A DNA stretch of 64,000 nt from contig DFWZ01000050.1 in assembly GCA_002381565.1 (NCBI GenBank), positions 32,134 to 96,133 of the forward strand, in the 5' to 3' direction. Made by a program: the position numbers and the translations under genes. The stretch comes from Gallionella sp. UBA4121. GTDB taxonomy: Bacteria; Pseudomonadota; Gammaproteobacteria; Burkholderiales; Gallionellaceae. Shown here piece by piece: positions 44,601-47,583 of this stretch (position 1 is the stretch's first letter; every line of letters starts with the position of its first letter). Under the pieces are notes generated by a model, which was not told the DNA's origin, searched no databases, and saw nothing but the letters and a program-made list of their open reading frames with translations.

Positions 44601-44900
44601 TGCAGATCATCCCTTCTTTAATCTCTACGTCTTGTCCCTCCACCATCGAACCATCCTTACCGTGAGGATTGGAATACGTGACGGTGTAAACTGAATTTGG
44701 CGCCGGCTGCTCACCAGGGAAGGCCAGCTGAACTATTTGGAGATAGCTGTCACCTTTCGGCATTAAGGCGCCAGCGATTTTCGGCGTAATGGCGCCACTT
44801 TGAACTGCTATTTCAGTGGCTCAAACTGGGGGTCAAGAATGCGTGATTTATGTTGTTTTTGCAACCGCATTTTTGACCATTTTTTACTGACATGCCGACA

Positions 44901-45689
44901 TCAAGCCTGAGCTGGTTTCCCTCCCTTTCCTGTCGGTGGTTTTGATCTTTCCGGCATGGGTTTCGGGTCGCGGTAACTCTCTCCATCCAGAACTACGCGA
45001 TAGGCGCCGTGGCGTAATCGATCCAGCGTGGCCGCACCGATCATCTTGTTTGACGTGAAGGCCTCACCCCATTCATCAAAGTCCAGATTGCTGGTCAGAA
45101 TGGTAGCGGCACGCTCGTAGCGTTCAGCAATCAGTTCATGGAAATCTTCGTCTTCCGGCGTTCTCAACGGCTTTAGCCCAAAGTCGTCGATGATCAGTAG
45201 CGGTACTTTGACCAGATATTGAAAGCGTCTTTTGTAATTGCCGGTCGCATGCGCTTCTCGCAAGCCGTTTAGCAGCTGTGTTTGCGTGATGAATAACACG
45301 TCATAGCCCTGACGCGCGGCAGCATGACCCAACGATTGTGCCAGGTGACTTTTGCCGGTGCCGCAACGCCCGACGATCTGTACGGCGACTTTTTCTTCGA
45401 TGAATCTGCAGGTTGCCAAATCATGGACAACTGCCCGATTCAGATTCGGCAGTCGGTCGAAATCAAATCCTTCCAGCGTTTTCTGGCTGCGGAAATTGGC
45501 ACGTCGCAAGCGCTGATCCAGTCTTTTTTTCTCCCGACGGGCGACTTCATCATGAACCAGCAGGCTGAGAAAGTCAGTGAAGGCCAGTTTTCGATCGATG
45601 GCTTCACGGTTGCGCGCTTCGAGCGAATCGAGCATGCCGGTCAGACGCAGTTGCTTGAGTAAGGGCGTTAATTCAGGAATCGGATGCAT
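44901..45689 (-). CDS. istB: IS21 helper ATPase IstB
   Basis: KTLEGFDF, GRCGTGKSHLA Walker A, LLIIDDFG, TILTSN, ATLDRLRH. Confidence 0.95.
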   Translation of the reverse strand: MHPIPELTPLLKQLRLTGMLDSLEARNREAIDRKLAFTDFLSLLVHDEVARREKKRLDQRLRRANFRSQKTLEGFDFDRLPNLNRAVVHDLATCRFIEEKVAVQIVGRCGTGKSHLAQSLGHAAARQGYDVLFITQTQLLNGLREAHATGNYKRRFQYLVKVPLLIIDDFGLKPLRTPEDEDFHELIAERYERAATILTSNLDFDEWGEAFTSNKMIGAATLDRLRHGAYRVVLDGESYRDPKPMPERSKPPTGKGGKPAQA

Positions 45690-45697
45690 GGCAGACC

Positions 45698-47245
45698 TCA
45701 TTGAAGAATGGATTGGTTGTTGTGGCAGAAGCGACCACCCCGAGTGTAAGTTTCGGCAAGTGAGTCAAAGGCTTTGAGCGGCGCGAGTTGATCCAGTCCC
45801 TTTTCAAGGATGGTTTTGACCACTTTGTAGTATGGTGTGCCGTAATGGTTGGCGCGTGAGCAGGCGGCTTCCAGACGGACAGCGCCGTATTTTTGTTTGA
45901 GTCGCAACACGCCCTGCACCGCACGCATCTTGATCAATACAGAGTCGCTGAACATCGCATGCACCAGCGCATGGCAGGCAGGTCCAACCTGTTGGGCGGT
46001 ACTCAAACACCATTGCGTATCCTGCATTTGCCACGCCTGTGCTTCAGGTGGCATATGGTCATTCAAGGTGTGTCGTAACCCCTTACCTGTCAGCCGCACA
46101 TGGCTGGCAACCGCCGCATGCTCGTGATACACCGTGATCATCGTGTCGGTGGCCTTCAACCACAGGTCCTGACCAGTCAGCTTGAAAGGCACTGAATAGT
46201 AGTTATTCTCAAACTGGACATGCGCGTCACGATGAACGGTAACCTCAGACCAGCTTGCCAATTCCGGCGGCACGGCAGGTAAGGCTGTGAGCAGGCCTTT
46301 TTCTACTTCTGCAAAGCGGTTGAGCGGCGCCTCGCGGGTCGTACCGTGAATGCGATTGCCGGCCTCGTTCATCACCCACGCCTGCAACTGACGGTTGGCA
46401 TCTTCCAGATCACGGAATTCGCGTAGTGGCAGGAAGCTACCTTTGATGTATTTGACGCCTGCCTCAACAATGCCTTTCTTTTGCGGGTCGCGTGGCGGAC
46501 AAGGATCGATCTTGAAGCCGTAGCCTTCGGCGCATTCCGCATACGCCCGTTGCACCGTCGGCTCATGCACACAGGCTTTGATGATGGCACATTTGGCATT
46601 ATCGATAATGACGCGCGACGGCACGCCTGAGAATGATTCAAATGCGCGTCGATGGCAACCCAGCCAGGTCGCGACTGTTTGGTCGCGGACGAACTCGGCA
46701 TACTGGTGGCGCGACCAGCACAAGGTCATCACGAAGAACCATGTCTTGAATATCTCGCCGGTGTATACATCGGTGATCAGCGGGCCTGAACCGAAATCCA
46801 CCTGAACTGCATCGGCCGGTTTGAACACCAGGCGTAACGGGACATCGGGCTGTTGCAGGGAAACGAGCTGGCTCAGAAAACGATGAACCGAGGAATAACT
46901 GCCGGTGTAACCATGATTGCGCATCAGCGTGGCGTGGATGGTACTGCCCTGAATGCCGGACGCGTGCCATTTGGTCACCTGATCACGCCAAGGCTCCAGC
47001 GTGGAAAGACAATTGGCAGGCAACGCATCCTTGCGCTCAAACAGCGTGGCGAGAACACCGTCATCAGGCAGTGGCCGATCAGGAGAAAGCCAGCCCTGTT
47101 CGCCAGCCATCTCGCGAACCTGAGCGAGCTTTTTACGACCCATCGTTTTTGATCGGGCAATATCCCGATCGGAATCACCCTGGCGCATGCGCACCAAAGC
47201 ATTGCGGTATTGATACATCTCGAACCTCCGTCTAGTCACAACCAT
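45698..47245 (-). CDS. istA: IS21 transposase IstA
   Basis: VQVDFG, IIDNAK, PRDPQKKGIVEAGV (DDE), NRIHGTT, NYYSVP motifs. Confidence 0.95.
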   Translation of the reverse strand: MVVTRRRFEMYQYRNALVRMRQGDSDRDIARSKTMGRKKLAQVREMAGEQGWLSPDRPLPDDGVLATLFERKDALPANCLSTLEPWRDQVTKWHASGIQGSTIHATLMRNHGYTGSYSSVHRFLSQLVSLQQPDVPLRLVFKPADAVQVDFGSGPLITDVYTGEIFKTWFFVMTLCWSRHQYAEFVRDQTVATWLGCHRRAFESFSGVPSRVIIDNAKCAIIKACVHEPTVQRAYAECAEGYGFKIDPCPPRDPQKKGIVEAGVKYIKGSFLPLREFRDLEDANRQLQAWVMNEAGNRIHGTTREAPLNRFAEVEKGLLTALPAVPPELASWSEVTVHRDAHVQFENNYYSVPFKLTGQDLWLKATDTMITVYHEHAAVASHVRLTGKGLRHTLNDHMPPEAQAWQMQDTQWCLSTAQQVGPACHALVHAMFSDSVLIKMRAVQGVLRLKQKYGAVRLEAACSRANHYGTPYYKVVKTILEKGLDQLAPLKAFDSLAETYTRGGRFCHNNQSILQ

Positions 47246-47312
47246 CTCCTCGGCAAAATGCCGCGAGTCTAGTTGCTCAATGAAAGTTCGAGCCCCTGAT
47301 AAAGGTTCAAAG

Positions 47313-47438
47313 TGGCGCCTTAACGCCGGAAATCTGGTGGCGCCATTACGCCGAACATAAAGTGGCGCCTTTATGCCGAAAGTTTACTGGCGCCATTACG
47401 CCGAAAACGAAATGGCTCCATGACGCCGAAAGTTCACA
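47313..47438. repeat. IS21 subterminal repeats (five units, exact 25-bp period); two more at 44755-44798
   Basis: TGGCGCC(A/T)TTA(C/T)GCCGAA-like units start at 47313, 47338, 47363, 47388 and 47413. Confidence 0.9.
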
Positions 47439-47583
47439 ATAGCTCAGTTCGTGCTCGATTACCTCACGCGGACGCCCATTAACGATGATTGAAGATGTCT
47501 TGTTGTGACCAGAGTCTTGGTCGGAATGGCTATTGCTCATGATTTGATTTCCTTATGGATAAATTTAAAAATATATTCAGTGC

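Follow-up and report, generated by a model that had tools for sequence, protein, structure and literature searches.

The stretch of 64,000 nucleotides (nt) analysed here, hereafter the window (Gallionella sp. UBA4121, assembly GCA_002381565.1, contig DFWZ01000050.1, positions 32,134–96,133 of the forward strand), contains a Type II Bub operon. An IS21-family insertion sequence (IS) has very probably split its gene bubA, which encodes the ubiquitin-like protein (Ubl) of the system, leaving the pathway null, and an uninterrupted form of the gene exists elsewhere. The host assembly comprises 2.96 Mb in 63 contigs and is probably derived from a soil metagenome. An earlier note on this DNA had described an IS21 insertion in the Ubl gene of a module with an E2-E1 fusion and a DUF6527 protein, and this description is borne out by matches to IS21 profiles, Multi_ubiq, DUF6791/ThiF and PF20137 (Table 1). 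The event itself is ordinary, in that an IS has knocked out a known system whose operon class has already been catalogued. An 89 amino acid (aa) gene whose two pieces hold only 34 and 55 codons may, however, escape annotation, such that the E2-E1/DUF6527 pair seems to be an orphan. Additionally, natural interrupted and uninterrupted alleles that are ~97% identical offer a possible comparison for work on the targets and role of the pathway.

The IS21-family element and the split bubA gene

Members of the IS21 family carry imperfect terminal inverted repeats with TG...CA ends and several repeated subterminal sites, and they duplicate 4–8 bp of the target. The element in the window combines an istA and istB pair, TG...CA ends with subterminal repeats and a short duplication. 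IstA matches the IS21 family transposase profile NF033546 at 250.6 bits (cut-off 160; profile positions 4–294 of 294), IstB matches the IS21-like helper ATPase profile NF038214 at 261.5 bits (cut-off 200; positions 1–230 of 232), and the end of istA overlaps the start of istB by 4 nt. The terminal inverted repeats span 26 nt and are 77% complementary. A repeat of ~25 nt occurs at both ends, with four listed copies at a 25-nt spacing at the istA end (47309–47433) and two copies at the istB end (44755–44797). On the plus strand the left junction reads ...GGAG ATAGC TGTCACCTTTCGG... and the right junction ...GAAAGTTCACA ATAGC TCAGTT... As each copy of ATAGC is followed by a T, a 6-bp duplication (ATAGCT) is an alternative reading, but 5 bp is favoured because the IS ends are symmetric (TGT...ACA). 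By chance, two fixed junctions would share the same 5 bp about once in 1000 cases. The inverted repeats, the perfect ATAGC duplication and the intact istA and istB genes listed in the earlier note are all present. The exact limits of the element are also reproduced by a 2691-nt contig from public run X4, which is identical to 44748–47438 (0 differences). The element is complete and probably still active; indirect signs of transposition are the intact genes, the identical copy standing as a contig of its own in X4 and relatives in other contexts in runs X5 and X6.

The guanine-plus-cytosine (GC) content of the IS is 0.53–0.57, compared to 0.41–0.49 in the flanks, and a count of its copies, as the earlier note had proposed, found a single one in the 63-contig assembly. 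Elsewhere in the assembly, one further IstB-like match above the Pfam cut-off resembles what is left of an IS (contig C1, 19024–19371); its frame is interrupted by two TAG codons, and it is probably a decayed IS21-family fragment. The nearest relative of the IS that was found is a copy in a genome of the same genus with 83% DNA identity. The proteins of that copy align with those of the window over the full length and at a higher identity than the DNA (IstA 85.6% aa identity over 514 aa, IstB 89.9% over 266 aa), as expected under purifying selection. The top plasmid matches are annotated IS21-family istA/istB genes from Caballeronia and Paraburkholderia with no more than 72.7% nucleotide identity. 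Compared to the IS21 and ISBmu1-type elements of Burkholderiales plasmids, the window element shares the overlapping istA and istB, the TGT...ACA ends, the subterminal sites, the 5-bp duplication and a length of 2.7 kb, but it does not exceed that 72.7% identity to any plasmid copy. As the same-genus copy is likewise only 83% identical, the element is probably an unnamed member of the IS21 family. Contigs from public runs X5 and X6 contain relatives that are mostly 92–94% identical (one short piece reaches ~98%) and have different flanks, which is consistent with a mobile element circulating in such communities.

The 5' half of bubA retains a start codon at 47540 with AAGGA 9–10 nt upstream and a computed Shine-Dalgarno (SD) pairing free energy (dG) of -6.2, relative to a background of -2.05 +/- 2.5. 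When the IS and one copy of the duplication are cut out of the window by script, the two halves join into 89 codons with zero internal stops, and the 3' end of the gene overlaps the start of bubBD by 26 nt. Against PF14452 (Multi_ubiq), the 3' half covers profile positions 19–68 of 69, where intact relatives cover 1–68, and a profile built from 28 intact BubA rows matches both halves (Table 1).

Intact homologous loci provide the comparison for this reconstruction. A BubBD scan of species-representative genomes yielded 35 loci and a BubBD scan of metagenomes yielded 70, for a total of 105 relatives. The earlier note had held that its reading would fail if homologous loci lacked a contiguous Ubl matching the reconstruction. 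This is not the case. Among the genome loci, 34 of 35 have a contiguous bubA that matches the joined frame directly upstream of bubBD, and the closest of these (locus L011) is 71% identical over positions 1–89 without a gap. The match ends at locus position 4023 in 26 of the 34 rows, with the bubBD match starting at 4001, which is the same 26-nt overlap as in the window. A BubA match was also found in 56 of the 70 metagenome loci, and all 56 cross the joint without a gap at positions 30–40. For 13 of the 14 metagenome loci with no match, the contig begins inside bubBD or within ~210 nt of it, leaving no room for bubA; the remaining loci without a match are L104 (metagenome) and L035 (genome). 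When the two window halves are aligned with homologues (30 rows in all), they meet with neither overlap nor gap. The rejoining in frame that the earlier note had described is thereby upheld, with 89 codons, no stop and a gapless fit to the homologues. Its further statement that precise excision would restore the gene is correct in terms of sequence, but such excision is not known to belong to IS21 transposition and instead arises rarely, through slippage mediated by the host.

The position of the insertion can be placed on a predicted fold. For the L011 BubA, AlphaFold2 gives a model (mean predicted local distance difference test score 85.6, predicted template modelling score 0.72) with strands at residues 16–20 and 23–27, a short strand at 31–33, a helix at 34–41 and four more strands. 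With a template modelling score of 0.78 and 40% identity over 80 columns, its top PDB match is 9cd2, the multi-ubiquitin protein of E. coli ZDHYS365 and the BubA of the Type II operon that has been studied (10.1101/2024.11.21.623953). According to the model, the insertion separates the beta1-beta2 hairpin of the beta-grasp from helix alpha1, and neither fragment would be able to fold as a Ubl. Taken together, a complete IS21-family element would have transposed into bubA at codon 34/35. By analogy with the family, the IstA transposase would have acted together with the IstB ATPase, which chooses the target, to make a 5-bp staggered cut at ATAGC, and repair of the cut would have duplicated the 5 bp. 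The conjugation pathway would then be without a substrate and null, though BubBD and BubE are intact, because BubA is split and the genome has no second Multi_ubiq gene; the sole match to that family in the genome is the C-terminal half of the broken gene.

Table 1. Location of the features described in the text (window positions)
Feature	Position	Strand	Basis or remark
ChlI/Mg-chelatase (comM-type), N-terminal part	36838..37824		C-terminal domain at G000:C52:99234-99512, ~3.1 kb past the right end of the window
DcdV-like dCTP deaminase, 556 aa	39685..41355	+	N-terminal P-loop, C-terminal dCMP-deaminase; PDLC02373 5.6e-172
bubE, DUF6527 serine protease, 153 aa, intact	42946..43407	-	PF20137 2.6e-25
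bubBD, E2-E1 fusion, 398 aa, intact	43404..44600	-	DUF6791 3.8e-58 and ThiF; NF004805 552.9 bits
bubA 3' half, codons 35–89 and stop	44575..44742	-	Helix alpha1 and remaining strands; PF14452 2.4e-10; BubA profile 92.5 bits
62-aa open reading frame, from an ATG in the IS end through the bubA 3' half	44575..44763	-	Probably not translated efficiently
Target-site duplication ATAGC, istB end	44743..44747	.	Sequence
IS21-family insertion sequence	44748..47438	-	2691 bp; ends, repeats, istA/istB, exact X4 contig
Terminal inverted repeat, istB (right) end	44748..44773	-	Second repeat copy at 44779–44797
istB, AAA+ helper ATPase, 266 aa	44901..45701	-	PF01695 2.9e-64; NF038214
istA, IS21-family DDE transposase, 515 aa	45698..47245	-	Pfam rve and Mu-transpos_C_2; NF033546
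64-aa open reading frame, 34 BubA residues and 30 from the IS end	47346..47540	-	List of open reading frames
Terminal inverted repeat, istA (left) end	47413..47438	-	Outermost of the ~25-nt copies occupying 47309–47438
Target-site duplication ATAGC, istA end	47439..47443	.	Sequence; X6 join 44742 to 47439, 6 letters assignable to either side
bubA 5' half, codons 1–34	47439..47540	-	Disordered tail and beta1-beta2; BubA profile 31.5 bits, E 3e-9
PDC-S38 candidate, 61 aa	47584..47769	-	PADLOC 2.4e-33; between the WYL gene and bubA
WYL-domain protein, likely CapW/BrxR-type regulator	47879..48790	+	PF13280 6.3e-14; divergent
Methyltransferase block	49500–57000		PglX-like (PDLC02541, 5.1e-120), second methyltransferase, 1088-aa type IIG-like enzyme
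TniQ and TniB genes	62032–63965		Near the far end of the island

Identity of the Bub operon

Type II Bub operons (formerly 6E.2/DUF6527) consist of the Ubl BubA, the E2-E1 fusion BubBD and the DUF6527 protease BubE (Ye et al., 10.1101/2024.11.21.623953). In this system BubA is adenylated, passed to an oxyester on a Tyr of the E1 and then to an oxyester on a Ser of the E2 and on to targets, and the conjugates are cleaved by BubE; residues S106, R219 and Y342 of the E. coli BubBD are essential (10.1101/2024.11.21.623953). BubA of such operons has one or more beta-grasp (Multi_ubiq) domains; BubBD lacks a catalytic Cys and has an invariant Ser, with Lys and His, in the E2 (S106), an adenylation Arg (R219) and a Tyr in the crossover loop (Y342); BubE has a C4 zinc site and a Ser/His dyad; and a JAB/JAMM peptidase is typically absent. 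The window locus has the corresponding components, with the split bubA upstream of bubBD, likely equivalents of the BubBD residues, and a BubE with four Cys and a Ser/His pair. Against 33 homologues, BubBD retains 99 of 99 columns that are conserved to at least 90%; within the E2 part these include S105 and K107, and within the E1 part R217 and Y341. Three of these residues (S105, R217, Y341) are one to two positions off the essential E. coli residues. Of the 32 columns conserved among 16 BubE homologues, the window protein retains 31, with C36, C38, C40, C75, S67 and H78 among them; the exception is Q76, where 15 of the 16 have R. BubA retains 10 of 11 conserved columns, residue 81 being the exception. 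The nearest solved relative of BubBD is the Citrobacter BubCD.

The window operon resembles the studied E. coli operon in its gene order, in the conserved Ser and Lys (E2 part) and Arg and Tyr (E1 part) of BubBD, in the four Cys and the Ser/His pair of BubE, in an adjacent WYL regulator and in the lack of a JAB peptidase among the neighbours scanned. The E. coli operon differs in its BubA, which has three domains, whereas the window BubA is a single beta-grasp of 89 aa (the 'Ubl_1' class of that paper), and the window operon further differs in that its gene is interrupted by an IS and in that it appears to be cargo of a transposon-like island. The Type I/II Bil systems (BilABCD) and the Cap2/Cap3 enzymes of the Type II cyclic-oligonucleotide-based antiphage signalling system (CBASS) are similar to Bub as E1/E2-type conjugation machineries in defence islands. 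The window locus, however, has no JAB peptidase, as judged by a Pfam scan of adjacent open reading frames, and no CD-NTase, and the Bub enzymes form Tyr and Ser oxyesters and not Cys thioesters (10.1101/2024.11.21.623953). A classification of the fusion protein as a Cap2-type E1-E2 was considered and rejected; the PADLOC matches reach 16–29 bits and cover the ThiF core only, and PADLOC v2 has no Bub model.

A separate observation concerns the end of BubA. A C-terminal Ser within the motif T/S-D/N/G-K/Q/R-S (window 44575–44580) is present in the window BubA and in all 34 of the 34 single-domain homologues. The Citrobacter BubA ends in Gly (10.1101/2024.11.21.623953), and no discussion of the Ser in single-domain BubA was found in the available portions of the Bub preprints.

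The uninterrupted allele and alternative explanations

In a search of public sequencing runs, most of the stretch was found in four runs from a single soil study, two of which may be the source of this DNA, and a fifth to a quarter of it in runs from other studies. Contigs from four runs (X1, X4, X5 and X6) were compared with window positions 44200–48000. A contig from X6, a groundwater run from a different study, continues from 44200–44742 directly into 47439–48000 (11,574 nt, depth 110) and so skips 44743–47438, which are the 2696 nt of the IS and one copy of the duplication. The flanks on this contig differ from the window at 11 of 543 nt and 19 of 562 nt (~97.3% identity). The X6 contig is an empty site with exactly the predicted join, and the uninterrupted allele that the earlier note had proposed to look for does exist. 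This allele is known from the X6 contig only. DNA searches of 40 relatives (24 of the same genus) returned short weak matches in two genomes of other families, and those of 155 other species genomes of the same genus returned short ~72% matches in three. With matches this short or weak, none of the near relatives searched gave a readable uninterrupted allele. Similarly, a scan of metagenome contigs found BubBD at 78–81% aa identity at best and no empty-site allele.

Several considerations weigh against the reading of a split gene and a null pathway. The X1 contig that crosses both junctions may be the source of the assembly itself: X1 belongs to one soil study and is a possible origin of the data, and it does not count as independent evidence. 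The evidence from the runs consists of contigs, which are blind to minority alleles; no empty-site joint was seen among the X1 contigs, and contigs drop rare variants. Parts of the flanks have no cover in X4 and X5, from which no conclusion is drawn. In BubA, residue 81 in the last strand (44602–44604, minus strand) is a Cys where 32 of 33 genome homologues have Phe, and a restored bubA with C81 might be less than fully functional. The catalytic residues of BubBD and BubE, whose genes are intact in sequence, were matched by conservation and near-identical numbering and not by direct alignment to the E. coli proteins. Finally, a role of Bub operons in immunity or in a stress response is suggested but unproven (10.1101/2024.11.21.623966).

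It is exceedingly improbable that the junctions are an artefact of assembly or binning, with the IS of another organism in the metagenome stitched into the bub locus. The 63-contig assembly, its probable soil metagenome origin, and the fact that the sole spanning contig (X1) may be source data would all allow for such an error, as would the GC content of the IS above that of its flanks and the relatives of the IS in other contexts in X5 and X6. A chimeric join would not, however, generate a perfect 5-bp duplication, complete IS ends and gene halves that abut to the codon, and a GC content above that of the surroundings is nothing unusual in a mobile element that has only just arrived. Further, the 21,986-nt X1 contig covers the whole stretch compared with 0 differences and even depth through the IS, which is not broken out as a repeat.

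An old and fixed insertion within an operon that is already a decaying relic is quite unlikely. The departures of BubA C81 and BubE Q76 from strongly conserved residues could point in this direction, as could locus L035, where an IS21-family element occupies the position of bubA and the bubBD frame is broken. The earlier note's statement that the gene has no further lesions holds for the frame and the absence of stops; residue 81 departs from the usual Phe. Among the metagenome homologues this residue is Phe in 52 of 56, Leu in three and Cys in one (the intact locus L101), and C81 could be tolerated variation or the first sign of relaxed selection. The perfect duplication, full-length istA and istB and the complete set of BubBD conserved columns argue against great age, as do the 100% identical copy of the IS in X4, which is another sample of the study of X1, and an uninterrupted allele that is only ~3% diverged. 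Based on sequence features, 'recent' is a description with which the insertion is consistent, because of the perfect duplication, the intact transposase genes, the lesion-free downstream genes and the identical X4 copy. That the Bub module is 'costly', as the earlier note also suggested, is speculation.

It is very unlikely that the insertion has rewired the module, with read-through from the IS keeping BubBD and BubE expressed or with a C-terminal BubA fragment put to use. The IS and the bub operon are co-oriented, and transcription that begins at the bub promoter or comes from istAB could thus continue into the downstream genes. In a consensus scan of 44300–48000 the minus strand had no terminator-like site (the four sites detected lie on the plus strand and are no more numerous than in shuffled sequence). 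Both bubBD and bubE are intact and have their own SD sequences (dG -5.1 and -7.4), and the 62-aa open reading frame retains the conserved C-terminus. This open reading frame starts at an ATG at 44763, located 16 nt inside the IS and in frame with the 3' half of bubA, and its existence was correctly noted earlier. Its expression as a 62-aa fragment is nonetheless unlikely, as the 16 nt ahead of the ATG pair with the anti-SD sequence no better than background (dG -1.5) and the fragment lacks beta1-beta2. A minus-strand consensus scan for a hybrid outward promoter at the istB end found none (a weak negative), and no activity of BubBD or BubE independent of the Ubl is described in the available portion of 10.1101/2024.11.21.623953. 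For a polar effect on the E2-E1 and DUF6527 genes, which the earlier note had called probable, the evidence points both ways. The shared orientation and the lack of a minus-strand terminator-like site speak against it; on the other side, from the istB stop to the bubBD start there are 300 nt with no credible translated frame, and the conserved 26-nt overlap of bubA and bubBD, suggestive of translational coupling, is no longer translated.

Other loci without bubA and the genomic neighborhood

Two of the related loci without a BubA match have an IS beside bubBD. In L035 (2366–4000) an IS21-family element ends in ...TTTACA directly before the bubBD start codon. Its IstA matches NF033546 at 239.8 bits and is 27% identical to the window IstA, indicating an unrelated element; as the assembly is built from long reads, the break in the bubBD frame could reflect a sequencing error. 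In L104 (1320–2170) bubBD is truncated at its 5' end, starting at residue 52, and lies directly next to an IS6-family transposase gene. No remnant of bubA was detected in either locus with the BubA profile. Thus an intact bubA is missing beside an IS in three instances (the window, L035 and L104) among the window and its 105 relatives, which is suggestive but not a statistic. It seems doubtful that Type II Bub operons are recurrently inactivated by IS at the bubA end on account of a Ubl that is costly or self-toxic. Should this be the case, the window allele and the X6 allele would represent a natural null and wild-type pair for finding the function of Bub.

The region around the operon appears to be a ~29-kb island inside comM, and the Bub operon and its neighbors resemble the cargo of a Tn7/Tn5053-like element that has entered this gene. 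The methyltransferase block has a GC content of 0.52–0.61, compared to 0.39–0.49 in the adjacent DNA, and the cargo of the island is therefore mosaic. The presence of a Type II Bub operon among defense genes (dCTP deaminase, PDC-S38, WYL, PglX-like and type IIG) provides context for the unproven idea of a role in immunity. Many Bub operons are associated with WYL regulators of the CapW/BrxR type (10.1101/2024.11.21.623966), and homologues of the window WYL protein occur upstream of bubA in five related loci (L016, L017, L078, L086 and L089).

Two open reading frames follow bubE on the minus strand (41992–42979). The first encodes a hydrophobic product of 138 aa and shares 34 nt with the end of bubE; the second encodes 149 aa. 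Both are without matches in Pfam and PADLOC and without a counterpart in the 105 related loci, and as a result of the latter they were rejected as members of the Bub system. The likely start of the PDC-S38 gene is an ATG at 47754 that has an SD sequence. In a locus from Dysgonomonas (L034, 5542–5712), a homologue with 63% identity closely follows bubE, and PDC-S38 and the Bub operon may be linked.

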